From: a virus
DNA: 64,000 nt
Strand: one strand, 5' to 3'
Virus record (IMG/VR): IMGVR_UViG_3300042516_004811
Span: 32,001-96,000 of that record
Part shown: positions 49 to 30,917 of the stretch, piece by piece
Numbering within the stretch: the first letter of the stretch is position 1
Layout of the letters: each line of letters opens with the position of its first letter
The notes under the pieces: model-generated
Told to the model about the DNA's origin: nothing
The model's input: the letters and a program-made list of their open reading frames with translations, nothing else
Database searches by the model: none
Translations under genes and position numbers: made by a program

Positions 49-780
49 TCACTTCCTTGAGTCATTGATTAGCGGTAGGAGGAACCAGCCCCTCTCCCAC
101 ATCATACCGATGGCGGAGTACCCAATGATGTCTAGGTACGTGTCGGTAACACTTTCGTTAGCCGACTCCCCGCCACGGAAGAGGTGAAGATTTTTCAGTC
201 TGGCAATCTTGTCATGGCAGCGCACGAGTAGACCGTCCAGGCCAAACCGACTGATGTTCTCTGGACCGTAGTCAGTCTGCTTACGAATCAGGGTTTGTGT
301 AATTTCTTCGCGGAGCATCCAGCTATCCAGGACGCCGGCCGATGCAGAATTTCCAAAATCTGGATGTTTTGCCATCTGGGCGTCGAGTGCATTCTTCATT
401 AAATCGCTATTTTGAATGCCGGCAGCCGCAGCAATCGAGCCAAGAATTCGCCATTCTTCAACCCAGTACATCGAGTCACTTGAGAACCACTTCAGATTAT
501 TGAGCATTCCCTCGAACTGAATGTCCAGGAGGTGGAGGCCTTCGAGAATATTGTTCAGTTTTTCATCAATACTGTCGACGCCGGCTGAGCTCACAATTCG
601 TCGATTTTCTTCAGAATTTGAAAACGTGGAGACGTGGCCCAAAACCTTATCTACCGAGTCAAAAATCTGACAAACCACAATCTTGGCAGCATCCTGCCAG
701 CGGTCTGGCTGCTGTGGGTTTATGTCTTCCACCACCGTCAACATCTTATCTACCTGTCCCCCATCGGGAAGTCGTCCCAT
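49..780 (-). CDS. Nucleotide modification associated domain 1 (DUF1599-like) protein
   Basis: C-terminal motif RKQTDYGPENI...LLVRCHDKIARLKNL...NESVTDTYLDIIGYS. Confidence 0.7.
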   Translation of the reverse strand: MGRLPDGGQVDKMLTVVEDINPQQPDRWQDAAKIVVCQIFDSVDKVLGHVSTFSNSEENRRIVSSAGVDSIDEKLNNILEGLHLLDIQFEGMLNNLKWFSSDSMYWVEEWRILGSIAAAAGIQNSDLMKNALDAQMAKHPDFGNSASAGVLDSWMLREEITQTLIRKQTDYGPENISRFGLDGLLVRCHDKIARLKNLHLFRGGESANESVTDTYLDIIGYSAIGMMWERGWFLLPLINDSRK

Positions 781-1220
781 TTCTCGGGCGGATTAATCGC
801 TAGCTCCATCTTAACCATCTCGGCCATCTTCTCCAACTCAGCCACCCACAGGTCTTCGCCCTGCGGTTGGAGCCCCGCTCTCTCTTCATCAAGAAACTCC
901 TGAATATCAATTTGCTTCAAGGATTCAATAATGAAGTCGCGAGAAAATGCTGCGATAATAGAATTCTCGCCACCCCCGCGCATGAGCACTGGGCCCGGCT
1001 TATCATCCAGGGCAGAGGCTGGGACGTGAATGCCGGTCACGACGTACGGTCCATCGGTGTACAGAAAAACAATATTGCTTTCCCCGCTATCAATGTCCTT
1101 GAGTTGACTCTTCACTTCATGCACAACTTCCGCAGGCAAACCAGAGGCGTCCAGCATCTGGGTGAATTCCGTCTTTTCTGTACTGATTCGACGATTGATT
1201 GGGTCCTGGTCTTTGCTCAT
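750..1220 (-). CDS. hypothetical protein
   Basis: 156-aa ORF co-oriented with and overlapping the downstream gene. Confidence 0.65.
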   Translation of the reverse strand: MSKDQDPINRRISTEKTEFTQMLDASGLPAEVVHEVKSQLKDIDSGESNIVFLYTDGPYVVTGIHVPASALDDKPGPVLMRGGGENSIIAAFSRDFIIESLKQIDIQEFLDEERAGLQPQGEDLWVAELEKMAEMVKMELAINPPEKWDDFPMGDR

Positions 1221-1319
1221 TTTGTCTCTTTTTCTGTTGTAGGTCTCGAGTAGCTCTACGTGAGCTCGATGGTAGATGTGTCAAATTTTTGATTTTTTAA
1301 ACATGCCGCAGCCGGCCGG

Positions 1320-1640
1320 TCACTTCCGCCCGATAATGCCGAAGTTGAAAAATGGACTAGATGGCTCATCGCGAGATTGTCCAAATTTTGGAAATCCACG
1401 CGGCCCCTGCGGCTCGTCCGCCTCAAGCTCATCTGGTGAAAAAAGTCCACTTTCATGAACTGTTTCGCTGGCCATGAAGATTGCCCCCCAGTAGCGCACG
1501 CCAAGTTCGAAGTCTTCTTCGCTGTCATGAGTGATTCGAATCTTTTCATAATTCTCGTGACTAGTTTCGATGGTGATGTCGATGTGGTAGACGTTCCCGT
1601 CATTGAACGGCGAAAAGTCCATAATTCTTCCAGCTTTCAT
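1320..1640 (-). CDS. hypothetical protein
   Basis: acidic 106-aa ORF, GGAGG RBS, 4-nt overlap with upstream ORF. Confidence 0.6.
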   Translation of the reverse strand: MKAGRIMDFSPFNDGNVYHIDITIETSHENYEKIRITHDSEEDFELGVRYWGAIFMASETVHESGLFSPDELEADEPQGPRGFPKFGQSRDEPSSPFFNFGIIGRK

Positions 1641-1894
1641 ATGGTTGCCTCCTCTTTGATTTCTTTGTTTTTAAAGACCATGAATCCAGGGATAGCGCTG
1701 TGACCCCAATACCTTGGGTCACAAAAAGCAGGTCCCGTAACCCATGGGTGTGAAAACCTTTCGACAGCATTAATGTCCTGGTCCTCAAGGATTTCTGTCA
1801 TCTCTTTCACGGCAGCGGACATAGCCTCTTCTGGAGATTCTGCTATGACGCTTATGCCGACCAAGACCTGGACGGTGTATTGATGTTTACTCAT
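1637..1894 (-). CDS. hypothetical protein
   Basis: 85-aa ORF with purine-rich RBS (AAGGGGAA). Confidence 0.6.
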   Translation of the reverse strand: MSKHQYTVQVLVGISVIAESPEEAMSAAVKEMTEILEDQDINAVERFSHPWVTGPAFCDPRYWGHSAIPGFMVFKNKEIKEEATI

Positions 1895-1909
1895 TTGGTT
1901 CCCCTTGGT

Positions 1910-2083
1910 TTAGTACTCGCAGCGCTGCCCGCCACAGCTTCCATAGTTCTTACAGAAACTCTGGTAATTGATGCAGTCTGGATTACGCGTGTCCTGCTTC
2001 TGGCTACGTGCGCGTTTGCGCTCAGCTTTGGCGCCACGTGACTTGCCGAACTTGTATGTAACAACAGTTCCTAATAGTCCCAT
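1910..2083 (-). CDS. small hypothetical protein with Cys-rich C-terminus (57 aa, not in ORF track)
   Basis: hand translation MGLLGTVVTYKFGK...DCINYQSFCKNYGSCGGQRCEY*. Confidence 0.45.
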   Translation of the reverse strand: MGLLGTVVTYKFGKSRGAKAERKRARSQKQDTRNPDCINYQSFCKNYGSCGGQRCEY

Positions 2084-2199
2084 GGCACTACCTTATCCAC
2101 CACCGCAGATAATTGCAACCTACAAATTAATCACTCCAGTAAATTCAAAATCAAAAGGTTTAGTGACAAGCGAACATGTGTTCGTCTAGTATTCCTAGT

Positions 2200-2574
2200 A
2201 TGGACAACACCACAAAATTCAACATTTATATACAGGCTCTCGAGCAGTACATCGCCCGAGAAGGTAATTCGAAAATCCCGGCAACTTATGTCGAAAAAAT
2301 CGAAAATTCTGACATCTCACTGGGAGCTTGGGTTGGTTACATCCGTCAGAGATACCGCAAGCAAATTCTTTCTGATTCTCGCATCTCACGCCTGGAACAG
2401 ATTTCAGGTTGGCAGTGGGGTCCGTTCCAGCCAGGGCCGGCAACTGATGCTTCAAGAAATGAAACAATTCGCAATATGCGTGCCGCCGGAAAATCACTCA
2501 GAGAAATTGCGGATGAGTTTGATTTGTCTCGGCAGCGAGTTCACCAAATTATCAAGAAACTAAACATCGCCTAG
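2200..2574 (+). CDS. helicase-associated (HA) domain plus C-terminal sigma-region-4-like HTH; putative DNA-binding regulator
   Basis: LEQYIAREGNSKIP..Y...SLGAWVGYIRQRYR...RISRLEQI.GW.W (HA-like) and GKSLREIADEFDLSRQRVHQII (HTH); start moved to ATG at 2200. Confidence 0.75.
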   Translation: MDNTTKFNIYIQALEQYIAREGNSKIPATYVEKIENSDISLGAWVGYIRQRYRKQILSDSRISRLEQISGWQWGPFQPGPATDASRNETIRNMRAAGKSLREIADEFDLSRQRVHQIIKKLNIA

Positions 2575-2621
2575 TACGTGGTCTTCCACCACCGTCAATT
2601 GGTTACCCGTAAGGAGACATC

Positions 2622-2930
2622 ATGCCGTCAAGAAAACCACATTATGGAAATGCCTTCGGGAGTTTCCCCCGTGCGATAACTGACCCGAAATCTACCGGGG
2701 CTCCAACCCGAGGGAAGGTGCAAAAGCACAGCGGGGCTCCAGTCGGAGCGCAGGCATTTGTCGGCTTTCTGTTTATCGTCGTGGTGAACTCGGCGGTGCT
2801 GTGGACTGGCGCACGGATTCTGCGCTCTGCCGAGGTGGTGTCTTGGAGTCTGTCTCTCGTGGAAGTCGTGAGCCTTGCGATTCTGTGGGTCGTGTGGCGA
2901 GCGATAGACCGAGCCACACATCGGCACTGA
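2622..2930 (+). CDS. hypothetical membrane protein
   Basis: AAGGAG RBS; two hydrophobic segments. Confidence 0.55.
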   Translation: MPSRKPHYGNAFGSFPRAITDPKSTGAPTRGKVQKHSGAPVGAQAFVGFLFIVVVNSAVLWTGARILRSAEVVSWSLSLVEVVSLAILWVVWRAIDRATHRH

Positions 2931-3098
2931 CGAGCCATGAGAGCCTGTCTCTCGTAGCCTGCCAGCGAGCCTCTGTGAGTGTCTGTGGAGCCGTGTGCCG
3001 GTCATCCCACACACAGAGCGTGTAGGTCACAAGAACGCATGTCAGAGCCATGACGGATAGAGCCAGTAGTAGGTAGATAAGTGCCATGAGTGTCCCTC

Positions 3099-3338
3099 TC
3101 ACTCGTTCTCTGCGTAATCGTCATCAAGGTTCATGTAGTCGCCCAACACTGCCAGTAAGTCATACTCGCCCATAGTGAGCGTGTCGTAATCCTTGACTGA
3201 CTTCTCAATGCTGTATCTGCTTTCCGTGATTTCTGCGAGCATGCCCGAGTAGTAGCGAACGAGTTTGGAAATCGTTTCACAGAGTTCATCAAGCAGTTCT
3301 TCTTCTCGTTCTTCTTTGGTAGTTGCTTGCGTGTTCAT
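3099..3338 (-). CDS. hypothetical protein
   Basis: 79-aa acidic ORF with GAGG RBS. Confidence 0.6.
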   Translation of the reverse strand: MNTQATTKEEREEELLDELCETISKLVRYYSGMLAEITESRYSIEKSVKDYDTLTMGEYDLLAVLGDYMNLDDDYAENE

Positions 3339-3587
3339 TTCTAATACCTCTTTTTTTGACTCTATCGTTTATGTTCTGACTTATCTACCTGCATTGCCTG
3401 TGTCTCGTGTGTGGTACTAGGTAGATAAGTTGATTTTTTCGCTCGCCGTTGCCAGCCCCCCGATGGGCTTTCCTGAAAAGGAGCAACACAGTCAGCCCAC
3501 CGAGGGGCGAGCATGGTACAGGTAGATAAGTCCACCTGTCACGCCGAGAGCAGTGGGGCTTGCGCCCCACCACTCCTAGCGAGGCTT

Positions 3588-5144
3588 CTAGGTCAGTGAC
3601 CTGCCCATGTGCTTGCGGTAAGTGTCTTGGAACATGTACGCCCACACCGAGCGAGCCTGACCACCAGTGCGCAGTTTGCGCAGTTGCTCAATGGCTTCCT
3701 CAACATGGGGAACCACGATGTAGCCGTGCTTCTGTGCGTACTCAATGCACTGCATGGAAAGGATTTCAGAGAAAGAGTCTCTGTGTCCACACACTCCACC
3801 GTCTGTGACCCACACAAGCGGAGCGTTCTTGCCTTGACGGTTCTCAACGCCCCAAACTATTGCAGGGTAGTCCACGCCGTTTCCGTGTCCATAGTCAATG
3901 TATTCCACATTCTCAACCATGCGACCCTTGTCAGCGATGACCCACATGTTCGGTGCGGTGTCACTGTTCTTGTCGGAATAGATAGCCACCGTTGCGCCCT
4001 TTGCGTTATCCACGATTTCCACGATTTGTTGTGTCGTGAAAGACATGGAACCGCTTGCGTCAATAATGACCATTCCACCCGAGCCACGGATGTTCTTGTC
4101 AAACACACGCTTTGCAGGGTCGGTCATGTATCGGTGCAGTCTGCGAGGACGGCGACCCATGTTGGTCGCAATGCGCTTCTTGCCGATGTTGCCAACATGC
4201 AAGCGAGGCATTGGCTCACGACTCACACGGAGTTCCGACCACTTAGGAGCAGAGCCGTGGTATTCGGTCGGCTTCATGTCCTTGTGCGGATTTCCATTGC
4301 GGTCGCCTTCACCGTCAGGCTCGCCTTCATTGCTTGGAGACTTATCTACCGACTCATCGGCTTCCTCTCCCTTGCCCTCGCTCTTGTCAGAGCCAGCCTT
4401 GCTCTTGCCTTTGTCACCCTTGCGCTCTTTCGGCGGTGGGAACGAGGCGATTCTGTCCACCCACTCTGCGATTCGCTCAGTGTGTGAGAATCCATGCGGT
4501 GCAAGTCCACCGTCACGCTCAACGCCAGTAGAAGCGAGCGTACCTGTGCGGTGCGCTTTCTTCATTTCTCGCATTGCTCGCTTGCCAATGTCCAGCAGAG
4601 CGTCACCCCATGCTCGGTTGTGCCTACGGATTCCAGTCAGGAACTTCTTGTGACCAGCAGTGCCAGCAGTAGCGAAGCAGGTAGCAACCGCACCTGCCCA
4701 GTCATTTGCTTGCGCAAGCCGTTCACCTGCTTCCATTTCACTTCCGTCAGCGAGTTCCGTCTTGATAGGGAAGCCAACATTTTCAGCGAGGTAGTTCATG
4801 CGAAGTTCCTCAACTGCCACCATTGCAGGTGCAGAGGCAACGCCTCGGGCAACCCACTGCTCCATTTGTTCCTCGGTCGGAGACAACTTGGCATGCATAA
4901 GTTCATGCCCTCGGATAGCCCGAGCGAGTTCGGAGTCGGTCGCAGGTGCAAACATCACACGCTTGTCAATGCTCGTGCGAGGCTCACCACGCACAGGTCG
5001 GCAGTTCTCAACTGTCCAACGCTCATGGGCAACATCGTGTCGCCCGAGCAGGTTCGGTTCGGGCTTGTGCGCCCCCACCTCGGACTTATCTACCGAGGTG
5101 GGGAACGCCTTGCCCGACTTGCTTGGAGTCGGTGTGGTGGACAT
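3588..5144 (-). CDS. HExxH metallopeptidase-like / vWA domain protein (CobT-like partner of MoxR AAA+)
   Basis: GHELMH motif, acidic/Gly linker, vWA MIDAS IIDASGSMS and WVTDG; adjacent to AAA+ gene; start trimmed to MSTTPTP. Confidence 0.8.
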   Translation of the reverse strand: MSTTPTPSKSGKAFPTSVDKSEVGAHKPEPNLLGRHDVAHERWTVENCRPVRGEPRTSIDKRVMFAPATDSELARAIRGHELMHAKLSPTEEQMEQWVARGVASAPAMVAVEELRMNYLAENVGFPIKTELADGSEMEAGERLAQANDWAGAVATCFATAGTAGHKKFLTGIRRHNRAWGDALLDIGKRAMREMKKAHRTGTLASTGVERDGGLAPHGFSHTERIAEWVDRIASFPPPKERKGDKGKSKAGSDKSEGKGEEADESVDKSPSNEGEPDGEGDRNGNPHKDMKPTEYHGSAPKWSELRVSREPMPRLHVGNIGKKRIATNMGRRPRRLHRYMTDPAKRVFDKNIRGSGGMVIIDASGSMSFTTQQIVEIVDNAKGATVAIYSDKNSDTAPNMWVIADKGRMVENVEYIDYGHGNGVDYPAIVWGVENRQGKNAPLVWVTDGGVCGHRDSFSEILSMQCIEYAQKHGYIVVPHVEEAIEQLRKLRTGGQARSVWAYMFQDTYRKHMGRSLT

Positions 5145-5145
5145 G

Positions 5146-5868
5146 TCAGCGAACCTTGTCCACTGCGAGAGCGTCAAGAATCTGCTTGGCACGGCGACCA
5201 AAGGTGAGTTCGCAAGCCCTCTCCATTCCGAGAGACTTCCGCAACTTGTCCAGTGCGAGGAACGCACGGAGCGAGATTCGGTCATCACCAGCGTCAGCCA
5301 TGCGCACTGCGTATCCACGCAGGTCGGGAGACAGAGCCAGCAGAGCCGAGGGGTGAGGCTCGTTGATTCGGATTCGGATAGGGAAACGGTCAGCGAGAGC
5401 CGTGGGCAGTTCACCCATGTTCTCAATGTTCGTGGTCATAACGGCAGAGAAGCCGTTGAGAGGACGCAGGATTTCGCCAGTTTCGGGATGCTCGTAGGAA
5501 GCAGACTCGGGAGAGTCAAGCATTGCGAGCAGGGTAGCGAACACATCGCCACCAGCCTTATCTACCTCATCAACGATGAGGCGACCGCCCTTTGCTCCGT
5601 TGCCTTTCCACGCTTTGAGCGCAGAGCCGTCAAGCCACTGGAAGCCACCATTGTTGGACGGCATGAAACCGCCAGTGACATCCATGTTGGTCATGTCCTC
5701 GGTGCAGACGAGGCGGTATGCGCCAGCCTCGGTGTCTCCGAAATGCAGACCTGCGTAGGTCTTGCCGATTCCAGCAGGACCGAACAGGATGATTCGGTCA
5801 ATGCCAGCGTTGAGTGCGTCCTCAACATCTTTCCAGCACTTGGGTAGTGCTTCGGTGGTGGTGTCCAT
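5146..5868 (-). CDS. MoxR/CobS-like AAA+ ATPase
   Basis: Walker A GPAGIGKT, Walker B LIVDEVD, TTN sensor, ALADRF arginine finger; AAGGAG RBS before ATG at 5868. Confidence 0.9.
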   Translation of the reverse strand: MDTTTEALPKCWKDVEDALNAGIDRIILFGPAGIGKTYAGLHFGDTEAGAYRLVCTEDMTNMDVTGGFMPSNNGGFQWLDGSALKAWKGNGAKGGRLIVDEVDKAGGDVFATLLAMLDSPESASYEHPETGEILRPLNGFSAVMTTNIENMGELPTALADRFPIRIRINEPHPSALLALSPDLRGYAVRMADAGDDRISLRAFLALDKLRKSLGMERACELTFGRRAKQILDALAVDKVR

Positions 5869-6196
5869 TGTTTGCTCCTTTGTAAGCGGTTGGTAGGGAC
5901 AGACACACCATACCATGCATGGTTCAGACTTAGTAACTCTTGACAGCCCGACTTATCTACCTACATAGAAGCCTTGCCAGCATTGGCTCTCCGACTTATC
6001 TACCTACATCAGCGCACACCTCTTATGTGGTGCGTTGCAGGTGGCATGTTGGCGCACGGATGATTCTCCGACTTTTCTAGCCGTCCCCCCATGCCTGCGC
6101 CCACCAGCCTGCGCTGGAGCCCCGCACCGCTCGGGCTTACAACGGGGCTCTTGTGGCCGGCGAGAGATTTATTGACTTTTTGACTTATCTACCTAG

Positions 6197-6685
6197 TCAG
6201 TCGCGTTCGTCTTTACTGACGCTCCACAGCCCGCGTTTCACCTTAACGAAAATCGGACTTTCTGAAACGTACTTCAGTGTTGTCTGGTACGAGAACCCAG
6301 ACTGCTCGACCAGTTGCTCGGTTGTGAACTGTTCCCCTCGATGGCCTTGAGCCCACTTGTCAAAGTTTTCCCATTTATTTGCGCGCTTCTGTGGAGCTTC
6401 TTCCTTCTCACGCTTTGAGCTGTACTTGAGGCTGGAGTAACCGAGGTTGTCCAGCACATACTGTGCTGACTCCTCTGATACCGAGTAACTGCGTAATGCA
6501 GAGATAGGCGAGCCACTGCCACCATCTCGCTGCCAAATCTGAACAACGTACATCCCTCGCAAAATCTCGTTTATGCGAGTCACTTCTTCCTTTGGAACTG
6601 CGAACAAGTTCTTGTATTTCTTCTCGGCCTCACCCCACAGTTGTTCGTGGTGGATGTCAATGACCTCACTTGTTATCTGATTCAT
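6197..6685 (-). CDS. hypothetical protein, possible C-terminal winged helix
   Basis: ORF with GAGGAAGG RBS; FTTEQLVEQSGFSYQTTLKYV...F.KVKRGLW. Confidence 0.6.
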   Translation of the reverse strand: MNQITSEVIDIHHEQLWGEAEKKYKNLFAVPKEEVTRINEILRGMYVVQIWQRDGGSGSPISALRSYSVSEESAQYVLDNLGYSSLKYSSKREKEEAPQKRANKWENFDKWAQGHRGEQFTTEQLVEQSGFSYQTTLKYVSESPIFVKVKRGLWSVSKDERD

Positions 6686-6921
6686 GTTTCCTTCCTCGGA
6701 CTTATCTACGTGTCCACCCAGCATGGTAATGGAAAAATCAACTATTTGACAAATGCTAAGTTCCGCCAGGCAAGTCTTCCCCCACCGTCATTGCCTACCT
6801 TCCCTGGTTTTCCGCCGCAGCCGGCCGCAGGTATGTAAAAAAAACGAAAAATTGAACACGGTTTAAGCCCTAGGGCTCAATCCAGCCGGGGCTCCACACC
6901 GCATTGAGCGAGTTGGGGCAT

Positions 6922-6960
6922 AAAAAAGCGAGAGCCACCATCCCCGTCAGATGGTGGCTC
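6922..6960 (-). terminator. intrinsic terminator
   Basis: GAGCCACCATC/GATGGTGGCTC stem with T-tract on the minus strand, downstream of 7010..7228. Confidence 0.7.
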
Positions 6961-7009
6961 CCTACTAGGTAGATAAGAAGAAAGGAAATAAACACTTATC
7001 TACCAGTCC

Positions 7010-7228
7010 TTAGAGGAAGGTGAACTTGTCACCCGCCTCTGATACGAGTCCAAGGCTACTGCCATTATCCCATTTCACAAACACAGTGCCAATGTCATCT
7101 ATGTGGTCAATGGTTCCCTCGTCACCAGCACGGAGCGTGGTGTATGGGTCGGCAGTGAAATCCAGTCTTATCCTTCGCCCGATGTAGTTGTCACGCATTT
7201 CCTTGATGACGGTCATTATGTGCTTCAC
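7010..7228 (-). CDS. DUF4314-like protein
   Basis: GRRIRL...DPYT.L..GDEGTIDHIDDIGTVFVKWDNGSSLGLV...DKF pattern. Confidence 0.75.
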   Translation of the reverse strand: MKHIMTVIKEMRDNYIGRRIRLDFTADPYTTLRAGDEGTIDHIDDIGTVFVKWDNGSSLGLVSEAGDKFTFL

Positions 7229-7374
7229 TTGTCTGCTCCTTCCAGTTGTTCCTCTTGCAGTACGAGAATCCGCATGTCCAACAACATGTCCACCATTTCA
7301 CTAGTAGAGATAATGTCCCTGCCTGAGCAGGACGCTATTGCGTTGTCCAACATCTTGATGAGTTCGGCGTTCAC
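7225..7374 (-). CDS. small hypothetical protein (49 aa, not in ORF track)
   Basis: GTG immediately after the upstream stop; GTGA overlap with the next gene; MNAELIKMLDNAIASCSGRDII... Confidence 0.55.
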   Translation of the reverse strand: MNAELIKMLDNAIASCSGRDIISTSEMVDMLLDMRILVLQEEQLEGADK

Positions 7375-8061: not shown

Positions 8062-8167
8062 AGTGTTTCCTTTCTGTGGGTTGGTGGTAATGGAAGCATA
8101 CCATGTATGGTTCAGACTTATCTACTGACTAATGGGGCTATCTCTCCCCAACGGTCAGCAATGTACT

Positions 8168-8374: not shown

Positions 8375-8407
8375 GGGGGTTTCTGTTTCTGTGGAGTTAT
8401 CTACTGA

Positions 8408-21419: not shown

Positions 21420-21475
21420 ATAAGTCTGAACCTGTAGTGGTACAGTGATGACAGGCCAAGAGAAAGGGAAATAAA

Positions 21476-22905: not shown

Positions 22906-23161
22906 TAGCGAATCCTGTCTATGGCCCAAAGAAGGCCCATCACGACAAAGAAAACTATCCCAAGGATAATCATTGAATCTCTATTCTCTCGGTTCATGCG
23001 CTACAGGATACATGCCGCATCGCCGGCTTGGCAAATAATGGTAAATGCTGGTATGTTGACTACAAGGGCTGGTGGGGTGCGTTCCACTCCTTTCTCGGTA
23101 CACCTCGGAACGCATCTCGCCGGCCTTACCTATCTACCTATTTATTGCTAGGCTTTTGCCC

Positions 23162-25078
23162 ATGAGGATGTACCTAGAGAATGGCGAAGTAGTACTGGAC
23201 TTTCCGTACGACGCTGGCCAGGTGAATGAAATCAAGAAAATCACTGGAGCCAAATGGGACAAGCTTGGCAAAGTGTGGCGCCTCCCAATCACCTCAATGA
23301 ACGAGGGCAGAGATTTCGCAATGAAGCACGACTTTGAAGTTGCGCTGGATGCAATGAAGTTCTTGGTAGATAAGCCCAAGACAGCCTCAGCAAGGGTATT
23401 CTTGCTGGATGGTTCAATAATAATGAGGTTCCCCTACGAGAGGGTCATCATTAAAGCGGTTAAGCAAATACCCGCAGTCTCGTGGGACAGCAAGAAGTCT
23501 GCATGGCAGGCGCCCCTCTCATCCGTCAAGGAAGTCATCAACTGGGCAGAAACATTCTCCGTCTATGTCGAGCCCGAAGTAATCGCGATAGCAGATGACG
23601 TAACGGAAAAAATGAACGAGTTTATTGAGGCTTCTCGTTCCACGGACGCTGGGGTGCAGGTAGATAAGTTGCAGGGTGACCTACTTCCCTATCAGCGAGC
23701 AGGTGTTGCCTATGCATCAAAAGCACTACGTACATTCATTGCAGATGAGATGGGTCTAGGAAAGACCATTCAGGCACTGGCGACCGTTGAGTATGTCTAC
23801 GACTCGTATCCAGCCGTTGTTGTGTGTCCTCCAAGCCTTGTACTTAACTGGGCGTCTGAATACCGTAAGTGGTTGCCACATCGGAGAGTCGCCACGGTGA
23901 CCAATAGAAAAGAGTTCCCTGACGCTGGCTCCTATGACGTTGTAGTGGTTGGTTATTCCAATCTCGCAACATGGGAGAAGAGTTTGTCTGGTCACCGCTC
24001 GTACATCTTCGATGAGAGTCACTACTGCAAAACGCCAACAGCACAGCGCACTAAAGCAGCAGTCAAGATAGCCCGTAGCGCCCCCAAAGAGGGCATTGTT
24101 CTGTGTCTCACTGGAACGCCAGTAACAAACAGGCCGAATGAATACGCCTCTCAGCTCGAGATTCTTGGAAGACTCAAAGACTTTGGTGGTCTGTGGGGCT
24201 TCTACCGACGCTACTGCGCTGCCTATCAGGACAAGTTCGGTCAGTGGAACATCAGTGGACACTCGCACCTAGATGAACTCAATGAGCGCCTGCGAGGCAC
24301 GTGTTACATCAGGCGTACGAAAGACCAAGTTCTCTCCGAATTACCACCCGTGATTCACAGCAAGATTCTCATTGAGGGCGAGAGCGCGGCGATGAAGGAA
24401 TACAAGAAGGCAGAGAATGACATTCTTGTTTACATCGCAGACAGAGCACGGCAAATGGCAATCGAGCAAGGCAAGCCATCGTACGGTGCCGCCATTGCCG
24501 CAATGATTAGAGCAGAGGCAAACGAGCATTTGGTTCGTTTGTCCGTTCTTCGCCGGCTTTCAGCAAAGGCAAAGATGGAAGCCGCAATGGAATGGATTCA
24601 GGCTCGGGTGGAAAATGGTAAAAAAGTCGTAGTTGCCGCTCACCACAGAGACATCGTGGATGAGATTTCTAGAAAGTATGGCAACCTTCGTATTCAGGGC
24701 GGAATGGCAGTAGAGGAAGTAGAGGACAATAAGCACAAGTTCCAGACACTCTCGGTAGATAAGGCGCCAGTCATCGTTCTTTCGATACAAGCAGCCAAGA
24801 CTGGTCACACTCTCACCGCATCGGAAGAATGCTTGTTCATTGAGTTGCCATGGACACCCGCAGACGTAGACCAGACATACAGCCGTCTTCACCGTATTGG
24901 GCAAAAGGGGAGCGTTACGTCCACCTACATGCTCACTGCTGGCACGATAGACGAGGACATCTATTCACTAATTGAGAACAAGCGTTCAGTAGTGAATGCA
25001 GCAGTAGAGGGCGGAGAAATGGTTGCGGACGATGGAGCGGTTCAGCTCATTCTGAGCATGATTGACAAGATTAGTTAG
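23162..25078 (+). CDS. SNF2-family helicase with N-terminal HARP-like repeats (SMARCAL1-like annealing helicase)
   Basis: IADEMGLGKT, FDESH, LTGTP, IRRTKDQVLSELP, SRLHRIGQ; two N-terminal FPY...IK.I....WD....W repeats. Confidence 0.9.
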   Translation: MRMYLENGEVVLDFPYDAGQVNEIKKITGAKWDKLGKVWRLPITSMNEGRDFAMKHDFEVALDAMKFLVDKPKTASARVFLLDGSIIMRFPYERVIIKAVKQIPAVSWDSKKSAWQAPLSSVKEVINWAETFSVYVEPEVIAIADDVTEKMNEFIEASRSTDAGVQVDKLQGDLLPYQRAGVAYASKALRTFIADEMGLGKTIQALATVEYVYDSYPAVVVCPPSLVLNWASEYRKWLPHRRVATVTNRKEFPDAGSYDVVVVGYSNLATWEKSLSGHRSYIFDESHYCKTPTAQRTKAAVKIARSAPKEGIVLCLTGTPVTNRPNEYASQLEILGRLKDFGGLWGFYRRYCAAYQDKFGQWNISGHSHLDELNERLRGTCYIRRTKDQVLSELPPVIHSKILIEGESAAMKEYKKAENDILVYIADRARQMAIEQGKPSYGAAIAAMIRAEANEHLVRLSVLRRLSAKAKMEAAMEWIQARVENGKKVVVAAHHRDIVDEISRKYGNLRIQGGMAVEEVEDNKHKFQTLSVDKAPVIVLSIQAAKTGHTLTASEECLFIELPWTPADVDQTYSRLHRIGQKGSVTSTYMLTAGTIDEDIYSLIENKRSVVNAAVEGGEMVADDGAVQLILSMIDKIS

Positions 25079-25514
25079 CGTCTTCTTCTTCTGGCGAGAC
25101 GCCACGGAAGATTTCTTCGGCAATCAACTTCGAGTACTTTCTGCGAAGGCGCCAAATCTTCTTGTTCAACTCAATCATTTCACGGCTCATTCGTGCTTTT
25201 ATTATCGCATCATTGTCATAGACACCGTACGTCTTGAACAGAGCATCATGAATGTCAGCATCTTCAATGATGATGTCTGAAATCCAGCCAGCCTTCTTGT
25301 CAATAGCAATCATGAGGTCGCACATACCCTCAACGCCGAACTCATCCCAAATACGATTGGCGATGATGTTGCAAAAATGCGAACGATACATCTGTCGCGC
25401 TTTCTGTGATTGAGACATGAAGTCGGATAGCCAGACGGCAAGTTCTGCCGGTGTAGGCATGTCGCCATCGCCGTCAGAGAGGAACTCGTAAAAGTTCTCG
25501 TCGTCTTCGCTCAT
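25071..25514 (-). CDS. hypothetical protein
   Basis: 147-aa ORF with GAGG RBS. Confidence 0.65.
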   Translation of the reverse strand: MSEDDENFYEFLSDGDGDMPTPAELAVWLSDFMSQSQKARQMYRSHFCNIIANRIWDEFGVEGMCDLMIAIDKKAGWISDIIIEDADIHDALFKTYGVYDNDAIIKARMSREMIELNKKIWRLRRKYSKLIAEEIFRGVSPEEEDAN

Positions 25515-25562
25515 TAGGCCTCGCTATGTCCGTAGATAAGTCAATGATACAGGGAATTGTTA

Positions 25563-26588
25563 TCAACGACTTGACAAGAGGAAATCCTGAGCTTTTATCT
25601 TTGAACGAGTCACCCAAGAATTGTTATCCATTGACGCAAGCGCACGCTCTGTCACTGTTGCATCACGATAGTGGTCAAGGTATTCACCAATAGCATTCAC
25701 TAGTGACCACCCGTTGTACCCATAGCCCTTTGCGTTGTTGTCGTTGTCATACACCGCACGAACAAGTGAAAGCACATTGTCTCTGTTGCGCTTCTGACGC
25801 TCTGTTGCACTTGTTTCCAGTGGAAATACTGCATTCAGTGTTTCGTTCAGTACTTTTGAGCCAGGCGCAACGGGGATTGACAGAAGTTTCTCAGCAGTTG
25901 CTGTAAACGCTTTTGCCCATTCATTGGAGATTTCGAGCACACTGTTTGCTTCTTCAATCGCACGCTCGGCGTTGCGTGTATGACGAGCAGTGAACACTCT
26001 CCGTGCACTGCTAAGACCTGCAACAACAGTGTTCTTGCATACGGCGCGAATACTTGTGTTTGCGAACGTAATCGCCGTCTTTCCGTCGTGCCCATTGCGA
26101 ACTAGTAGATAACGCTCAATCTGGTCATTCACGCCCATTGGGTCAATGACAAGCGCACCTAGGTCAAGAGATGAGAAGAACTCTCTGCCACCATTGAGAA
26201 CACCGCAAGTATCTACTACTGCATCACCCGTAGATGCTCCTGCGATAGCGAGCGCATAGTCAAGACATTCACGATTTTGCTGCACCACGTAGCGTGTGCC
26301 AACCGTTGCAAGACCATTGAACGTGCCGTCACCATTGACACGCACTGTGGCTCTACTGTCTGGTACTAGAACGAGCGAGCCATCAGAGTTTCTGATTACT
26401 TCGCCATTATCGTCACACACTGCTACCCGTGTGGTCACGACATCAAAGTTGGCCTGGGCGGCGGCGAGCATTGCCTCTGCCGTCTGCAAGCCCTTCATTG
26501 GTGTTCCAAGGCGATGCCAAGGGATTTCCCTGTCGGCGTAAGCCATTCTGGCTGTGCCGTCTTCGTTGATTTCTATGTCGTGTGACAT
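25563..26588 (-). CDS. DUF932 family phage/plasmid protein
   Basis: PWHRLG, Y.VQQN, YLLVRNGHDG, IRAVCKNT, RHT, W..VNAI.EY.DH. Confidence 0.85.
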   Translation of the reverse strand: MSHDIEINEDGTARMAYADREIPWHRLGTPMKGLQTAEAMLAAAQANFDVVTTRVAVCDDNGEVIRNSDGSLVLVPDSRATVRVNGDGTFNGLATVGTRYVVQQNRECLDYALAIAGASTGDAVVDTCGVLNGGREFFSSLDLGALVIDPMGVNDQIERYLLVRNGHDGKTAITFANTSIRAVCKNTVVAGLSSARRVFTARHTRNAERAIEEANSVLEISNEWAKAFTATAEKLLSIPVAPGSKVLNETLNAVFPLETSATERQKRNRDNVLSLVRAVYDNDNNAKGYGYNGWSLVNAIGEYLDHYRDATVTERALASMDNNSWVTRSKIKAQDFLLSSR

Positions 26589-26781
26589 TTCGTCTCCGTT
26601 CGCTATTTGCTTGTAGATAAATCTATCTGAAAGTACCCCCTTTCAGGCAGATGATTTCAGGCGGGGCTCCCCCTTGGGGGTGGGTTGGGCGCACGGGGAA
26701 CGGGTAGATAAGTCTGAACCGTATGTGGTACAGTGTTGATAGGAGGCACCAACGCCCCCGAACCGACCGAAAGGGGTCACC

Positions 26782-27081
26782 ATGTCCAGACCAATCATCC
26801 CAGTGAAAGCAGAGGCGATGCCATCGCTTCTCAGCGCATACCTCGCACGAGAAATCGACATGTTCGATGGTCACATCATCCGTGAGTTCCACCAGTTCGC
26901 CCTGCAAGCACAGGACGCGTTTGAGAAGGTCACCCAGACACCAGCGATGGCCGACTTCTACGCATCTTGTCTGCAACAGACAATCGCTCAACTGCTTGCC
27001 ACGACCTGCAAGACCGCAGGACTTCGGAACGCTCAGCGAGCCGTTGATGGCGCAATCACACAGCACACAGACAGCGTGTAG
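26782..27081 (+). CDS. hypothetical protein
   Basis: conserved promoter at 26704-26734, GAAAGGGG RBS, TAG stop inside repeat box. Confidence 0.7.
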   Translation: MSRPIIPVKAEAMPSLLSAYLAREIDMFDGHIIREFHQFALQAQDAFEKVTQTPAMADFYASCLQQTIAQLLATTCKTAGLRNAQRAVDGAITQHTDSV

Positions 27082-27255
27082 ATAAGTCTCGCCAAGCGAG
27101 GGTTCCCTGATTGAGGGGGTGAGCCAATCGGTTCGCCCCCTTTATCTATGGGTAGATAAGTCCAGCAGGAGCCCCGCTGACCAGGGTGAGCTGGGGTGGA
27201 CAGGTAGATAAGTCGAAGAGTTGATTTTTCTCTTTGCATTGTTTATTATGGTGAC

Positions 27256-28506
27256 ATGACTGGTACTGAAAGCCCAAAGGGGTTCACCTCGCCGTTAGAG
27301 GCACATGAAATGCAGACTGAATACCTGGTGTGGCGCAAAGGCCACCCGAGCGCAGACCGACTATTGCACGCATCTCAGTGGACTGCTCAGCAGAATGGAT
27401 TGTTTGAGTCGGTAGTTACATTGGAGAACAGAGAAAAGCAGTTCGCAGACTCGCGCGTTGCTCATAACGTGTGGCGTTTGACGGATGATGAAATCATTTC
27501 CCGTGCAGACACCGTGTACCTATCGGAAGAACTGCACGAATTGGTGCACACAGCATCGGAGTCAATGCCTGATGAAGTTCTTTTTCGCACTGATGTCTAC
27601 ACGCCGTGTGCAATGGTTTTCCTTGAACGCCCAATCCAGGTGAGGGTTCACGCTGGATGCTTATCGGATGACATTGACGAAATAGTAGATAAGGTTCGTC
27701 AATACGGTGGAACCGTTGAGGGAACCCGTAAGTACACGCAGACAGAGGACGGATACCTTGATGGCGTAGACGTTTACGAAATCGTTGCATTTTCGTGGGG
27801 CGATTGCGAGTCAATCTATCCTCACGTGCTTGAATCGGTAGCGAAGCAGTATGGCACTGCTAGTCCTGAATACAAATTCCAACTTGAGTTGGAACACTAC
27901 GAGAAGGAGGAATTGAATCACGCACGTTTTGTTGAAGAGGACGGAACAGAGCACCCGATGAACGCAATCATCGTTGGTGTGTTTGGGCGTATTGTCAGCT
28001 CAGAGATTGACGGTTTGACACTTGCCGTAAGAAACCCACTCATCTCGTTGAAAATGAATCTGATTGACAGTTACTACTTTATGTATGGAGAAGATGGTTT
28101 TCAACTTGAAAATGACTCGTTTGAAGAAGCAATGAATCAGTCAAGTTTTGACCGTTATCGCAGGTCTCGTAGATTCATCGTTGCACTGTTGCGTTTGATG
28201 AATGAGTACGTAGATGTTGAAACAACCCGTGTGCCTCGCCCGTTCTCTCGCAGGGGCGCAAGGGCTGGACGCGTGAACACTGACAGTATCACCACGCTAG
28301 AACTACGCAGGGCGCTCTACGGTGATAGTGATTCAGCAACAGGGCGCAAGGTATCGCTCGCACACCTTGTGCGTGGACACTGGCGTAATCAGTGGTATCC
28401 ATCGCAACAGATGCACCGTGCTCGCTGGATAAATGCGCACCGCAGAGGTGGAAGCGCAACAGATGAAGTGGTAGATAAGCCTCGCATCGTGACAGTGACG
28501 AGGTAG
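27256..28506 (+). CDS. hypothetical protein with C-terminal H.VRGHWR motif
   Basis: 416-aa ORF; HLVRGHWRNQWYP...WINAHRRG; TTGATT-N17-TATTAT ending 6 nt before the ATG (leaderless). Confidence 0.8.
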   Translation: MTGTESPKGFTSPLEAHEMQTEYLVWRKGHPSADRLLHASQWTAQQNGLFESVVTLENREKQFADSRVAHNVWRLTDDEIISRADTVYLSEELHELVHTASESMPDEVLFRTDVYTPCAMVFLERPIQVRVHAGCLSDDIDEIVDKVRQYGGTVEGTRKYTQTEDGYLDGVDVYEIVAFSWGDCESIYPHVLESVAKQYGTASPEYKFQLELEHYEKEELNHARFVEEDGTEHPMNAIIVGVFGRIVSSEIDGLTLAVRNPLISLKMNLIDSYYFMYGEDGFQLENDSFEEAMNQSSFDRYRRSRRFIVALLRLMNEYVDVETTRVPRPFSRRGARAGRVNTDSITTLELRRALYGDSDSATGRKVSLAHLVRGHWRNQWYPSQQMHRARWINAHRRGGSATDEVVDKPRIVTVTR

Positions 28507-28669
28507 CACTACTCACTCAGGAGCCCCGGCTGCTAGCGCCCTCGCGCGTTCGCGCTTCGGTTGCTCTCGGGCAGAGAATGCAAGTAGGTAGATAAGACCT
28601 AGCCCCCACCCCACTTATCTACTAAGCAGGGCAGGGGCAGGACTAGCAAGCGGAGATAGGGAACGCTTG

Positions 28670-29368
28670 CTAGTAGGGCTCGGGCGCGTGTACGGTCATG
28701 CCTGCGCCACACTGCGCGCACTTCATGCCTTCACCCGTGTACTCGGGATAGGACGAATCGTCAGCGCAAGAACCTTCCCACGAAATCCACTCGCCGTACC
28801 ACGAGAGTCCGTGAGTCTCTTCGCCACTGTCACACGTGACGTGATAGGAATCGTTATCGCATGGAAAGTATGACGCGTCACTCATCTCAATGCGGAATGC
28901 GCGCGGACGCGTATAGCCACCGCGAACGTCACAACCCCCGTGAATCTGAATCAGCGCGTACACACGCTCACCGATTGCGAACGTGACACCCTGCAAGGTT
29001 TGCGAGAGTGAATCGTCCCCGTTGTAGGTGTTCCACGTATGCGCCGACGAATCGCGCTCATTGGCGAAATCCTGCATGAGTGAGAAGTACCCGTCATCAG
29101 CATTGTGAGAGCAGAACGAATCCCACTCAGCATTGAGTGAGTCGTCATACTTGACGCGCGCCGTGAGATAGTGAAACACGGAAAGCGTCACGCCGTAGGA
29201 ACTCGCCCACGCTTGCGGTTCGCTCTCAAAATCAGCAAGCACCTTGCCTGCGTTTTTCTCGTAGTGTCTGCCGTAGTAGTCGCCACTATCAAGCATACTC
29301 CTACCCGTATTCTCGGTCAGCATTTCAGCAATGACCTCGGCGGTTTTGGTGTCGGTTGCGGTTGTCAT
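28670..29368 (-). CDS. conserved-looking phage hypothetical protein
   Basis: MLTENTGRSMLDSG..YGR, NTYN, LSQTLQ, QIHGGCDVRGGYT.P. Confidence 0.8.
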   Translation of the reverse strand: MTTATDTKTAEVIAEMLTENTGRSMLDSGDYYGRHYEKNAGKVLADFESEPQAWASSYGVTLSVFHYLTARVKYDDSLNAEWDSFCSHNADDGYFSLMQDFANERDSSAHTWNTYNGDDSLSQTLQGVTFAIGERVYALIQIHGGCDVRGGYTRPRAFRIEMSDASYFPCDNDSYHVTCDSGEETHGLSWYGEWISWEGSCADDSSYPEYTGEGMKCAQCGAGMTVHAPEPY

Positions 29369-29382
29369 GACTTATCTACCTT

Positions 29383-29661
29383 TCAGCGATTACGGAACGG
29401 ATAGGACGGGTGGGCTTGGCGCTCGTGGTTGCGCTCTTCGGCAAGTGCGTTGCTCATTGCGATTGTCATCAGCGTTGCGCCGATTGACCCGAACACTGCG
29501 AACACACCGCCCACGAGCAAGTCGTACAGAGCGTGTGAGTAGTAAGACACTGCCAGCAGAGCAACCCCGAACAACGGGAACGCCCACGACAGGACAGCGA
29601 GAGTGCGCATTACTGTCACGTCTTGCGCTCGGTTTCGGTTGGTGTGGTGTGTAGTAGCCAT
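29383..29661 (-). CDS. hypothetical membrane protein
   Basis: two TM segments, GAAAGGGA RBS, conserved promoter. Confidence 0.65.
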   Translation of the reverse strand: MATTHHTNRNRAQDVTVMRTLAVLSWAFPLFGVALLAVSYYSHALYDLLVGGVFAVFGSIGATLMTIAMSNALAEERNHERQAHPSYPFRNR

Positions 29662-29862
29662 TTTTTCCCTTTCGTTTGGCGACACACTCACCGTATCACA
29701 CGTGGTACAGACTTACAAGTATTTCCCGACTTATCTACCTGCCACCCCACGCCACAGCAAGCCCCAGCCTTGCACCCTGCCGGGAGCCCCGCTGATTAGC
29801 GGTATGCTGACGAGATGCCAGTACTTTACGGACATTCCACAAGCACGGAGGACGGGAACGAT

Positions 29863-30090
29863 ATGAGTGACATCACGCAGTTCACTAAGTGGTTTCACCT
29901 CAATGGCATGGACTTCCAACTAACGAACATCGCTGGCCAATGGAAATGCACTGCGTGGAAACGTGGCGTACCGACGCTTGAAGACGGCACGCCTAGTGAT
30001 TACTGGGCAAGTGGTTCGTGCACGTCAATAGTGAAAGCGATGCTCCGTTGCTACGAGTCAATCAGACACACACAACGCAAGGGAAACTAG
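29863..30090 (+). CDS. hypothetical protein
   Basis: 75-aa ORF with GGAGG upstream. Confidence 0.55.
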   Translation: MSDITQFTKWFHLNGMDFQLTNIAGQWKCTAWKRGVPTLEDGTPSDYWASGSCTSIVKAMLRCYESIRHTQRKGN

Positions 30091-30104
30091 TTATCTACCC
30101 GTAG

Positions 30105-30491
30105 TTAGGTAGTCGGCGGGTCATCGTGCCATTGGCCATCAGGCCAGGCAGTACGAGCGTGGACACCATAGATGTCAGTGCCGAACAGGTCTGTGCCTTG
30201 CCAAGCGTGACGGCAACACGGCACTTCGTCATCGCAAGGGTGACAGTTCGCTCCGAGTTTCTCAGCGAGTCGGGGGAAAAGCTCGAGAAACTTCACAACG
30301 CAATCGTGACAGAAAATCCATTCTCTCGTTCGTTGGTCGCCTGCGAGCACAGGCATCATATCGTCAAATCCACCGTAGTATCCGAATGTGTCAAATGGTA
30401 AGACCCAACCATTATCAGGGTAGATGAGTTGCGAGTTGCACTCAGTGCGTGTGTCGCACGCCGAACACACTGCATAGTTCTTTTCTCTCAT
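30105..30491 (-). CDS. Cys-rich hypothetical protein
   Basis: CSAC...GYYGGFDD...CHDC; leaderless behind a conserved promoter. Confidence 0.7.
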   Translation of the reverse strand: MREKNYAVCSACDTRTECNSQLIYPDNGWVLPFDTFGYYGGFDDMMPVLAGDQRTREWIFCHDCVVKFLELFPRLAEKLGANCHPCDDEVPCCRHAWQGTDLFGTDIYGVHARTAWPDGQWHDDPPTT

Positions 30492-30545
30492 AACTGCGAG
30501 CGTACCACACTGGGGACAAACTTAGCAACCCGTGGCACTTGCGCC

Positions 30546-30917
30546 TTATCTACTGAATGCACCTGAGGTCATTCGTATGAATGTTGAGTAGGCATACTGC
30601 TTGCGTTGGCTTGCGATGTACTGCGCTTCGTACCGCTTCCATCTGTTCATTAGTTCCAGTTCGGTATCCGATGTTGCGATACCTAACTGTCTCTCGGCTT
30701 CCGCCATCAGGGATACCATCTGAAATGGGACACCCGTGGAGCTCCACGGCGTTACGTCGTGCGCACGACAAGCATCAAGCACTTTGGTGGTGAACAGTGC
30801 TGCGAGGTGAATTCTCGTCATTCTTTCACGCTCATCTATCTCAAAGAATGACGGCGCACCAACACTTATGCGTTCACGCAATACCGCATAGGGCGTGACA
30901 AACAGATAGGTGTTCAT
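30546..30917 (-). CDS. hypothetical protein
   Basis: 123-aa ORF; stop codon inside repeat box. Confidence 0.55.
   Translation of the reverse strand: MNTYLFVTPYAVLRERISVGAPSFFEIDERERMTRIHLAALFTTKVLDACRAHDVTPWSSTGVPFQMVSLMAEAERQLGIATSDTELELMNRWKRYEAQYIASQRKQYAYSTFIRMTSGAFSR

Follow-up and report, generated by a model that had tools for sequence, protein, structure and literature searches.

A short asymmetric word, found as a dense array in the left half of the analysed window (the whole stretch of 64,000 nt), most likely serves as a docking site for a regulator specific to the phage, because each related phage carries its own spelling of the word at the same places. We read the array, with about even confidence, as an operator- or stoperator-type array for a phage-encoded reader, which would control a block of small early-type genes. 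Selection on the word is evident from the sequence, as are its placement, its orientation and the way it co-varies with lineage; we infer that its reader is a protein, encoded by the phage, and acts as a repressor. A limited literature search found no published description of this word family.

Phage and genome context

The window belongs to the 151,107 bp genome of an uncultured lake phage of actinobacteria, which is present in runs from about 17 studies and reaches a contig depth of about 200x in one of them (run X7). The genome encodes a WhiB-like protein, and therefore points to actinobacterial hosts:

56921-57289, minus strand: WhiB-like protein, 122 aa, with a variable C-terminal tail

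The phage looks virulent, and neither a tyrosine integrase nor a Phage_integrase domain was found in its genome. Comparison with the isolated phage collection yielded nothing at the nucleotide level, and the hits to exonuclease domains were weak. Among the data sets listed as containing the phage there was no RNA set. Within the array no Rfam families or tRNAs were found, a ParA-like N-terminus at 10209-10790 was a weak match only, and ESM Atlas gave no usable result for the 156-aa protein at 750-1220.

Count, extent and orientation of the word

The window contains 89 exact copies of the 8-mer TTATCTAC/GTAGATAA, whereas shuffles predict 0.92 and never gave more than 4. A previous sequence-only reading had counted by eye about 87 copies in the first ~30.5 kb, where about one is expected by chance, and a single outlier beyond the left half; exact counting places 88 copies at 647-30553 and the outlier, as described, at 45089. 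The whole genome holds 100 copies: 88 in 32.6-62.6 kb (genome coordinates), seven spread thinly over 18.8-31 kb and five elsewhere. Thus 95 of the 100 lie inside 18.8-62.6 kb, and the copies of the relatives are confined likewise. The genome-wide count, which the same reading had proposed, did not show a similar density elsewhere, and its suggestion of a recognition signal marking one ~30-kb domain is supported. The full word extends over about 13 nt and reads (t/c)aGGTAGATAAGTc in gene orientation; conserved information is limited to these ~13 nt, with unconserved flanks and no dyad symmetry.

647-30553, both orientations: array of 88 exact 8-mer boxes, full word (t/c)aGGTAGATAAGTc
647-19857, minus strand: domain A, leftward genes; 45 boxes reading GTAGATAAGT on the minus strand and 18 reversed
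20356-28595, plus strand: domain B, genes mostly rightward; 19 plus-strand boxes and one reversed
28615-30553, minus strand: domain C; five of five boxes on the minus strand
14399-14418, plus strand: tandem box pair, boxes 14399 and 14411, 12 nt start to start
45089-45096, minus strand: isolated 8-mer within a gene, where the rest of the full word is missing on its flanks; chance predicts about one copy per window

Copies do occur in both orientations, as had been noticed, yet not as a random mix, and they fall into three transcription domains (45 and 18, 19 and 1, and 5 and 0 copies with and against the domain). The analogy with L5 stoperators drawn by the sequence-only reading stands as the closest known one; however, the contrast in orientation that it attached to the analogy falls away, since 69 of the 88 copies (78%) follow the local direction of transcription here too. 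In six genomes, the copy and its nearest gene run in the same direction in 72-85% of cases. Domain B boxes stay plus-oriented even next to or within the minus-strand genes at 25071-26588. The boxes are arranged as singles, which are the majority, about 10 inverted pairs and a tandem pair, all of them arrangements previously claimed.

According to our own gene calls, 66 of 85 copies (78%) are intergenic, although about 70% of the array is coding. Placement is at regulatory positions, namely promoters and gene ends, and not even along the DNA. Among the 40 population variants listed, a minor part of the total, one is located in a box, about as often as chance would give.

Boxes at promoters, gene ends and within genes

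Of the 20 core promoters in the array, 18 have an exact box upstream at a distance of 24 nt or less. These early core promoters are conserved and follow the actinobacterial sigma-A pattern, with an extended -10. The box may be fused to the promoter or separate from it:

10819-10849, minus strand: example of a promoter-fused box; box 10842-10849 is followed by the core promoter AGTCTGAACC-N5-GTGGTACAGT, a Shine-Dalgarno sequence and the ATG at 10790
12394-12437, minus strand: box 12430-12437, 11 nt upstream of a separate core promoter at 12417-12394
20202-20386: switch point from domain A to domain B, where a GC-rich hairpin at 20266-20302 lies between two back-to-back core promoters

At the switch point, the leftward promoter (20225-20202) has a box with one mismatch and the rightward promoter (20363-20386) is fused to box 20356. 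Box-to-promoter spacing varies from genome to genome (-2, 6, 7-8 or 10-12 nt), so the box is separable from the conserved core promoter. The box was also considered as the -35 element of the promoter, and this was rejected because the 16-nt spacing to the -10 is present in only 12 of 85 copies and the spacing of the relatives differs. The modal distance of boxes to a start codon is 46-70 nt, which spans promoter and 5' UTR.

Gene ends are the other common position: 18 of 81 boxes fall between -12 and +10 nt relative to a stop codon of the same orientation, and six boxes overlap the stop codon. Four of six tested inverted pairs, directly after stop codons, fold at -22 to -33 kcal/mol with z values of -5.5 to -7.6. 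Furthermore, GGAGCCCCG hairpins are represented by 29 half-sites where 0.35 would be expected; after each come a box and a core promoter, and this unit of terminator hairpin, box and promoter recurs about every 1 kb.

11542-11572: inverted box pair straight after the stop of gene 11586-11906, forming an RNA hairpin (-24.6 kcal/mol, z -5.5)
18875-18913: inverted box pair behind the gene that ends at 18927, folding into a hairpin (-32.9 kcal/mol, z -5.9)
12415-12560, minus strand: imperfect palindrome, one of several of ~130-150 nt, consisting of a degenerate reversed box, a C-rich arm, the GGAGCCCCG hairpin at 12475-12510, a G-rich arm and a box
23366-24762, plus strand: three in-frame boxes at 23366, 23660 and 24755, each coding V-D-K, in the SNF2 helicase gene 23168-25078

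Private spellings in related phages

Seven related genomes show 27-70 copies each of their own variant, nearly exclusive to each and grouped in one 30-40 kb block apiece; relatives as a whole number 400 or more. At least 10 spellings of the word exist among relatives whose SNF2 proteins are 61-77% identical, and the related phages place their own spellings at the same kinds of position. Between two phages with 76% nucleotide identity, 25 of 27 aligned boxes are intact, compared with 13.6% of background 10-mers, while flank identity is 75%. As judged from such alignments, the word is under purifying selection. Two relatives differ by a parallel A-to-G change at 19-20 of 23-29 orthologous sites. 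The SNF2 codons at the box encode V-D-K in this phage, I-D-K (with its own box) in one relative and I-P-x in all others; the codon comparison argues that protein-coding sequence is bent to hold the word. Boxes within genes arose by point substitution, without indels.

Proposed action of the word

According to the stoperator-type reading, a bound reader would block initiation at the early promoters as well as read-through between and within cassettes. The early block could thereby be shut off as a whole, either at a later stage of infection or during a carrier or immune state, and each lineage would have drifted to its private spelling jointly with its reader. Several points speak against this reading. 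No reader was identified, and the DNA-reading segments of the aligned DNA-binding proteins stay the same whatever the box type. A box directly upstream of a promoter suits an activator equally well; about one-fifth of the copies are reversed, whereas reversed stoperator sites of L5 do not repress; and the phage is apparently virulent and without a tyrosine integrase, unlike the temperate Cluster A phages.

If the reading is true, stoperator-style silencing would extend beyond temperate mycobacteriophages, at a larger scale, to large, apparently lytic phages that are abundant in lakes. The many natural spellings and the parallel changes at orthologous sites amount to a natural experiment on the joint evolution of a DNA-binding specificity and its ~100 targets. 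The word also marks early promoters and cassette borders in an uncultured phage group, and provides a simple marker for lineage typing.

Search for the reader

No reader was identified among the DNA-binding proteins aligned across box types, nor was a gp71-like repressor. The DNA-reading segments of the aligned HTH, winged-helix and ribbon-helix-helix proteins are unchanged across box types, and two HTH proteins encoded in the window were set aside for this reason:

2200-2574, plus strand: protein of 124 aa with an HA domain and a C-terminal sigma-r4-like HTH; recognition helix invariant across all box types
8168-8374, minus strand: Cro/C1-type HTH protein of 68 aa; recognition helix invariant across box types

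The winged-helix protein at genome positions 24239-24679 and the ribbon-helix-helix and TerS-like HTH proteins were discarded likewise, their DNA-reading segments being the same whatever the box. Other candidates failed on different grounds. The WhiB tail is variable, without clear correspondence to box type; the 228-aa neighbour of the Cro-like gene is acidic and has no PDB match; and the apparent H/Y covariation of a 147-aa protein (25071-25514) with box position 9 breaks when this phage is added. An acidic paralog pair (genome 130514-131261) is closer between two word-sharing phages but is not DNA-binding-like. A column-pattern covariation analysis, with 8 genomes and about 60 typed loci, was dominated by hypervariable columns and had too few independent lineages. 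A hypervariable winged-helix protein is a weak candidate: it is only 25% identical between two phages that have the same 10-mer core, and so does not track the core word.

Relation to the DnaA box

The word and the DnaA box are both asymmetric and have the core GATAA (TTATC) in common. All copies read TTATCTACC, which has T for the consensus C at position 6 and C for A at position 9 of TT(A/T)TNCACA. The whole genome contains only three consensus DnaA 9-mers and no DnaA C-terminal domain. Perfect DnaA boxes are present in four distant relatives (L093, L087, L078 and L216); in L093 and L087 they form co-oriented tandem pairs, 3 bp apart, upstream of early promoters. Since true DnaA boxes hold this position in distant relatives, the word probably descends from DnaA boxes of the host, and this link suggests a route from a host-read signal to a phage-private one. 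The resemblance, already pointed out in the sequence-only reading, is thus more than cosmetic; the idea of host DnaA reading or titration offered with it is not supported, given the two departures from consensus and the spellings of relatives that are further off.

It is improbable that the sites, as low-affinity boxes, are still read by host DnaA, whether to titrate it, to tie early transcription to its status or to retain the DNA during entry. This would agree with a word that is a DnaA box with two changes, with the perfect paired boxes upstream of the early promoters of distant relatives, and with the precedent of T5, where eight DnaA boxes in the injection-stop region are proposed to hold entering DNA (bioRxiv 10.1101/866236). 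However, the two departures are found in every copy, consensus 9-mers are nearly lacking genome-wide, and the spellings of close relatives are mutually exclusive, further from the consensus, strongly selected and changed in parallel. A conserved host protein does not explain such selected private spellings, so host DnaA is an unlikely reader. The word also differs from the DnaA boxes of oriC, datA and T5 in being lineage-private and mostly single instead of in closely spaced arrays, and in having at least 10 spellings where one word would be shared across phages of related hosts. Tentatively, and with some doubt, we suggest that host DnaA boxes upstream of early promoters were captured by a phage-encoded reader of an unrecognised kind, so that the whole early-gene block runs on a private code, and that this reader and its ~100 sites diversified into at least 10 exclusive specificities, which may act as immunity or incompatibility groups among co-occurring freshwater actinophages.

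Alternative readings

The positions of the boxes at promoters could instead reflect activation, in which a factor that the phage encodes or that arrives with the virion would bind the box and help the host RNA polymerase at promoters with a poor -35, in the manner of the T4 MotA box or of class II activation. The box is present at 18 of 20 promoters and, when fused, spans about -41 to -28, in place of the TTG-type -35 of unfused promoters. We consider this unlikely, because a promoter lies downstream of only ~23% of boxes, the copies at stop codons, in genes and in inverted pairs are left unexplained, and box-promoter spacing differs within one helical turn between genomes. Moreover, extended -10 promoters work without a -35, and so do not need one.

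An action of the word in RNA, as a hairpin arm (terminator or stabiliser), as a target of a phage RNase or RNA-binding protein, or as a stop signal in several frames, seems quite improbable. It would fit the polarity of the word with transcription, the inverted pairs that fold stably just after stop codons and the six boxes overlapping stops; variants T1-T6 also keep TAG-N-TAA, and the common form TAGGTAGATAA has a stop in each of the three frames. Single copies nevertheless predominate; a copy placed after a terminator hairpin and ahead of the next promoter, or fused to a promoter at -41 to -28, lies outside the transcript of that promoter; and a need for stop codons would not by itself fix 13 letters. 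We give still less credence to the word as a recombination joint or mobile cassette end, in which word and palindromes would be PeSL- or MITE-like elements spreading and shuffling gene cassettes and the spellings would come from copy-and-paste homogenisation. The hairpin, box and promoter architecture repeated about every 1 kb, metagenome contigs with alternative joints near boxes (e.g., 6204 to 18330 and 19792 to 20338) and the PeSL precedent (PMC2839356, PMC4122927) are compatible with it, but the contig joints are short-flanked and may be assembly artefacts. In addition, the in-gene boxes were made by point substitution and not by indels, the word of 10-13 nt is homogenised while its flanks are not, and the genome has no tyrosine recombinase.

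Comparison with known systems

An integron attC array, with its IntI tyrosine recombinase and promoterless cassettes, differs from the present one, which has no Phage_integrase domain and whose cassettes carry their own promoters. The start-associated sequences of Cluster K phages are 13-bp asymmetric repeats, in one orientation, in the non-structural part of the genome; they are located 3-7 bp from start codons and include the Shine-Dalgarno core, and their function and reader are unknown (PMC3203893). Only six of 81 boxes of the present word are within 25 nt of a start codon. The PeSL of T4-type phages combine a stem-loop and an early promoter between small accessory genes of a plastic region (PMC2839356, PMC4122927), and the repetition of stem-loop and early promoter between small genes is also found here. 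However, PeSL consist of a host-type terminator and a promoter, without an additional private 13-mer that changes along with the lineage or is embedded in coding sequence.

The sites of Cluster A phages (L5 gp71, Bxb1 and TipsytheTRex repressor) are asymmetric 13-mers, found in promoters and short intergenic spaces with transcription polarity; their motifs vary between related phages, and their 20-36 copies are spread genome-wide (PMC9283540, PMC6550527). The present array has about 100 copies, confined to one 30-44 kb early-type block instead of the whole genome; about 20% of them are reversed, many forming hairpins at gene ends, and it belongs to a 151-kb, apparently virulent phage without tyrosine integrase, whereas Cluster A phages are temperate. 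A probable origin from DnaA boxes also sets the present word apart. Both systems share more than 20 copies of an asymmetric word of ~13 bp, an orientation linked to transcription, placement at promoters and short intergenic sites, motifs specific to the lineage, and actinobacterial hosts.

Copy number and extent of the box

The box is a repeated and oriented DNA word, and its 8-mer TTATCTAC/GTAGATAA occurs 89 times in the window, against 0.92 copies expected from shuffles and a highest shuffle of four. All but one of these copies (88/89) are located at 647-30553, referred to here as the array, and the remaining one at 45089, in agreement with the counts and examples of the sequence-only reading. 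The concentration held when the exact count covered the source record, a 151,107-bp virus genome with direct terminal repeats in which the window spans bases 32001-96000: 88 of its 100 copies are found at 32.6-62.6 kb, seven are sparse over 18.8-31 kb and five lie elsewhere.

Alignment of all 100 copies in one orientation shows a conserved extent of about 13 nt, (t/c)aGGTAGATAAGTc, beyond which the sequence is background, and the 13-nt word has no dyad symmetry. It carries TAG and TAA in two reading frames, and its frequent form, with TAG immediately upstream, has stops in all three; six boxes of this phage overlap the stop codon of a gene. The private spellings T1-T6 of relatives retain TAG-N-TAA, two stop codons in different frames, and the TAG of the word arises from the G-to-A change which separates it from the DnaA box. 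The G+C content is 50-57% in the box array (window 1-32000) and 45-48% in the replication/tRNA region (34000-64000).

Orientation and placement

Box orientation is non-random and follows gene direction in three domains:

647-19857, leftward-gene domain: 45 boxes read GTAGATAAGT on the minus strand, 18 are reversed
20356-28595, mostly rightward block: 19 boxes versus 1 by orientation
28615-30553, third domain: 5 boxes versus 0 by orientation

According to our own simple gene calls, on which all placement counts are based, 66 of 85 boxes are intergenic, although the array is about 70% coding. Most coding copies (15/19) are co-oriented with the gene that holds them, and the SNF2 helicase gene (23168-25078, plus strand) contains three boxes, each coding V-D-K. 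Only about 23% of the boxes have a downstream promoter; 18/81 fall between -12 and +10 nt relative to a co-oriented stop codon, and a start codon is found within 25 nt of only 6/81. Of six inverted box pairs tested, four form hairpins of -22 to -33 kcal/mol (z of -5.5 to -7.6).

Cassettes, hairpins and promoters

The box region is a series of small-gene cassettes, whose junctions typically show, in this sequence, a stop codon, often a reversed box or inverted pair, a GC-rich hairpin, the core promoter, and a leader of 25-40 nt with a Shine-Dalgarno sequence before the ATG. The hairpin GGAGCCCCG-N17-19-CGGGGCTCC (29 half-sites against 0.35 expected, spanning window 869-29791) is the middle of an imperfect palindrome of 130-150 nt between cassettes, with a degenerate reversed box at one outer end and a G-rich arm plus a box at the other. 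Because these hairpins lack a U-tract, they may be I-shaped terminators.

The core promoter reads (A)AGTCTG(a/t)aCC-N5-gTGGTAnnnT; its extended -10 is of a type common in actinobacteria. Pattern search, by which all promoters were defined, found 20 in the array, and 18 of them have an exact box at most 24 nt upstream, fused to the promoter through the shared letters TAAGTCTG in 11 cases; one of the other two has a one-mismatch box. This early promoter (window 5930-30522) is also conserved in relatives, including G005-G009, and in several relatives an inverted repeat, GTACC-N5-6-GGTAC, overlaps its extended -10, a possible operator for an invariant helix-turn-helix (HTH) protein such as the Cro-like one.

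The block encodes DUF932, DUF3846, DUF4314, DUF6011, an AAA ATPase, SNF2 and many orphan genes, a content that fits an early, anti-defence type block whose early transcription is presumed. No RNA data set is listed as containing the phage. In lake metagenomes, alternative contig joints and loose ends adjoin boxes and promoters (window 6204/18330, 19792/20338 and 19347-19826), which suggests strain differences at the cassette level, although these joints have short flanks and may be assembly artefacts.

Relatives and selection on the word

About 400 IMG/VR relatives of the SNF2 protein were found, and one 19.7-kb contig represents the same phage (99.6% identity). Relatives whose SNF2 protein is 61-77% identical show similar arrays, each with its own spelling, among them ACTAGATAAGT, AATAGATAAGT, GAGTAGATAACT, CTAATAGATAACT and GGTGTAGGTAAGT. 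In seven further genomes the own variant is nearly exclusive, with 27-70 copies in one block of 30-40 kb each. Across six genomes (this phage and five of the seven), 73-87% of boxes are intergenic and 72-85% point the same way as the nearest gene. The core promoter is kept in all genomes examined, while its distance from the box is -2 nt in this phage and 6, 7-8 or 10-12 nt in others; this variation rules out the box as the promoter -35 and makes it a separate element beside the promoter.

Two phages that share a spelling but are only 76% identical in nucleotide sequence keep 25 of 27 aligned boxes intact, compared with 13.6% of background 10-mers and a box-flank identity of 75%. Two relatives with different spellings (77% identity) show the same A-to-G difference at 19-20 of 23-29 aligned sites; thus, orthologous sites changed in parallel and their flanks did not. 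At 23660, the SNF2 codons spell V-D-K in this phage and I-D-K in one relative, which in each case fits the word of the phage itself; in all other relatives they spell I-P-x, without an indel. Taken together, these comparisons speak for direct selection on the 13-mer, exerted by a putative trans-acting reader whose specificity differs between lineages, and against a host-determined site or simple mobile-element spread.

Relationship to DnaA boxes

The distant relative L093 has 10 TTATCCAC in 20 kb, most of them perfect 9-mer pairs, co-oriented, 3 bp apart and directly upstream of its repeated early promoters. The boxes of L087 are arranged alike, and tandem clusters of perfect DnaA boxes occur in L078 and L216. 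The word of this phage differs from the DnaA box by two substitutions, C6 to T and A9 to C (TTATCCACA frame), the spellings of relatives lie further from the consensus, and only three consensus DnaA 9-mers occur in the genome. We take the word to be a probable descendant of DnaA boxes that is no longer a DnaA site. The resemblance behind the DnaA titration alternative of the earlier reading stands, given relatives with perfect boxes, whereas titration of DnaA by the off-consensus word is not supported. No DnaA C-terminal domain was found in the genome. A comparable case of DnaA boxes in the pre-early region of a phage is the injection-stop region of T5, where their function is likewise hypothetical (bioRxiv 10.1101/866236).

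Candidate readers

Pfam scans for reader candidates gave:

2200-2574, HA-domain and HTH protein
8168-8374, Cro-like HTH
genome 24239-24679, winged-helix protein
54109-54432, ribbon-helix-helix protein
56921-57289, WhiB-like protein
TerS-like HTH

All except the WhiB-like protein were rejected, since their DNA-reading segments are invariant across phages with different words; those of the Cro-like and HA proteins are invariant even in phages without this word family. The WhiB-like protein supports an actinobacterial host; its tail varies, with no clear match to box type.

Adjoining the winged-helix gene, a 160-amino-acid protein (genome 23743-24225) is confidently modeled (pLDDT 90) as an N-terminal winged helix with long helices after it, and its best PDB matches are all PadR, MarR or MntR regulators, with weak E-values of about 0.01. 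It is 22-30% identical between box types and the neighbouring phosphoesterase 81-96%; hypervariability beside a conserved neighbour is typical of immunity repressors. Because the versions in this phage and in a relative with the same 10-mer core are only 25% identical, we consider the 160-amino-acid protein a weak and rather unlikely candidate. The number of independent lineages was too small for covariation screens to decide. No tyrosine integrase was found in the phage. A pair of very acidic small paralogs, possibly DNA mimics, lies in the late module, encoded on the other strand (genome 130514-131261; L135:14514-15261); they are hypervariable, with 63% identity between two same-word phages against 51% expected from the genome tree.

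Possible function of the array

The word is a polar 13-mer that occurs at promoters and gene ends as well as within long genes, and its spelling is specific to the lineage. These features fit what has been published on L5-type operators and stoperators; there, a monomeric repressor halts initiation at promoters and elongation at intergenic sites, orientation-dependently (PMC9283540, PMC6550527). By this analogy, a putative reader at the boxes would silence and insulate the early block, a stoperator-like role to which we give about an even chance. We prefer it because it covers more of the observed box positions than an activator model, which accounts only for the promoter-proximal quarter and is unlikely. 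Residual reading of the boxes by DnaA is less likely again, an RNA-level element slightly less likely still, and a recombination joint the least probable of these.

Other features of the genome

A third repeat, GACGGTGGTGGA, occurs seven times on the minus strand at window 35-15036, where 0.26 copies are expected. In many distant relatives no word is more frequent than this motif (TTGACGGTGGTGGAAG), and at genome 30.6 kb it makes up a near-consensus promoter, TTGACG-N16-TATAGT. A 700-nt stretch without any ORF of at least 65 amino acids (genome 30194-30906; L132:18194-18906) lies immediately upstream of genes that resemble replication initiators and helicase loaders (genome 29320-30194) and is possibly an origin or control region. 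The tRNA genes are:

window 38707-46229 and 61194-61480, ten tRNA genes: Lys, Gln, Pro, Leu (two), Ser, Met, Val, Arg and Asn

Comparison with known systems

A limited literature search found no published description of the array. It falls outside the Cluster A mycobacteriophage system as defined, since its sites are regional here and genome-wide there; furthermore, no repressor like gp71 was identified and the phage appears virulent. SAS differ from the boxes, whose distance to start codons does not fit. PeSLs resemble the surroundings of the boxes in combining a terminator hairpin with a promoter, but have no private word.
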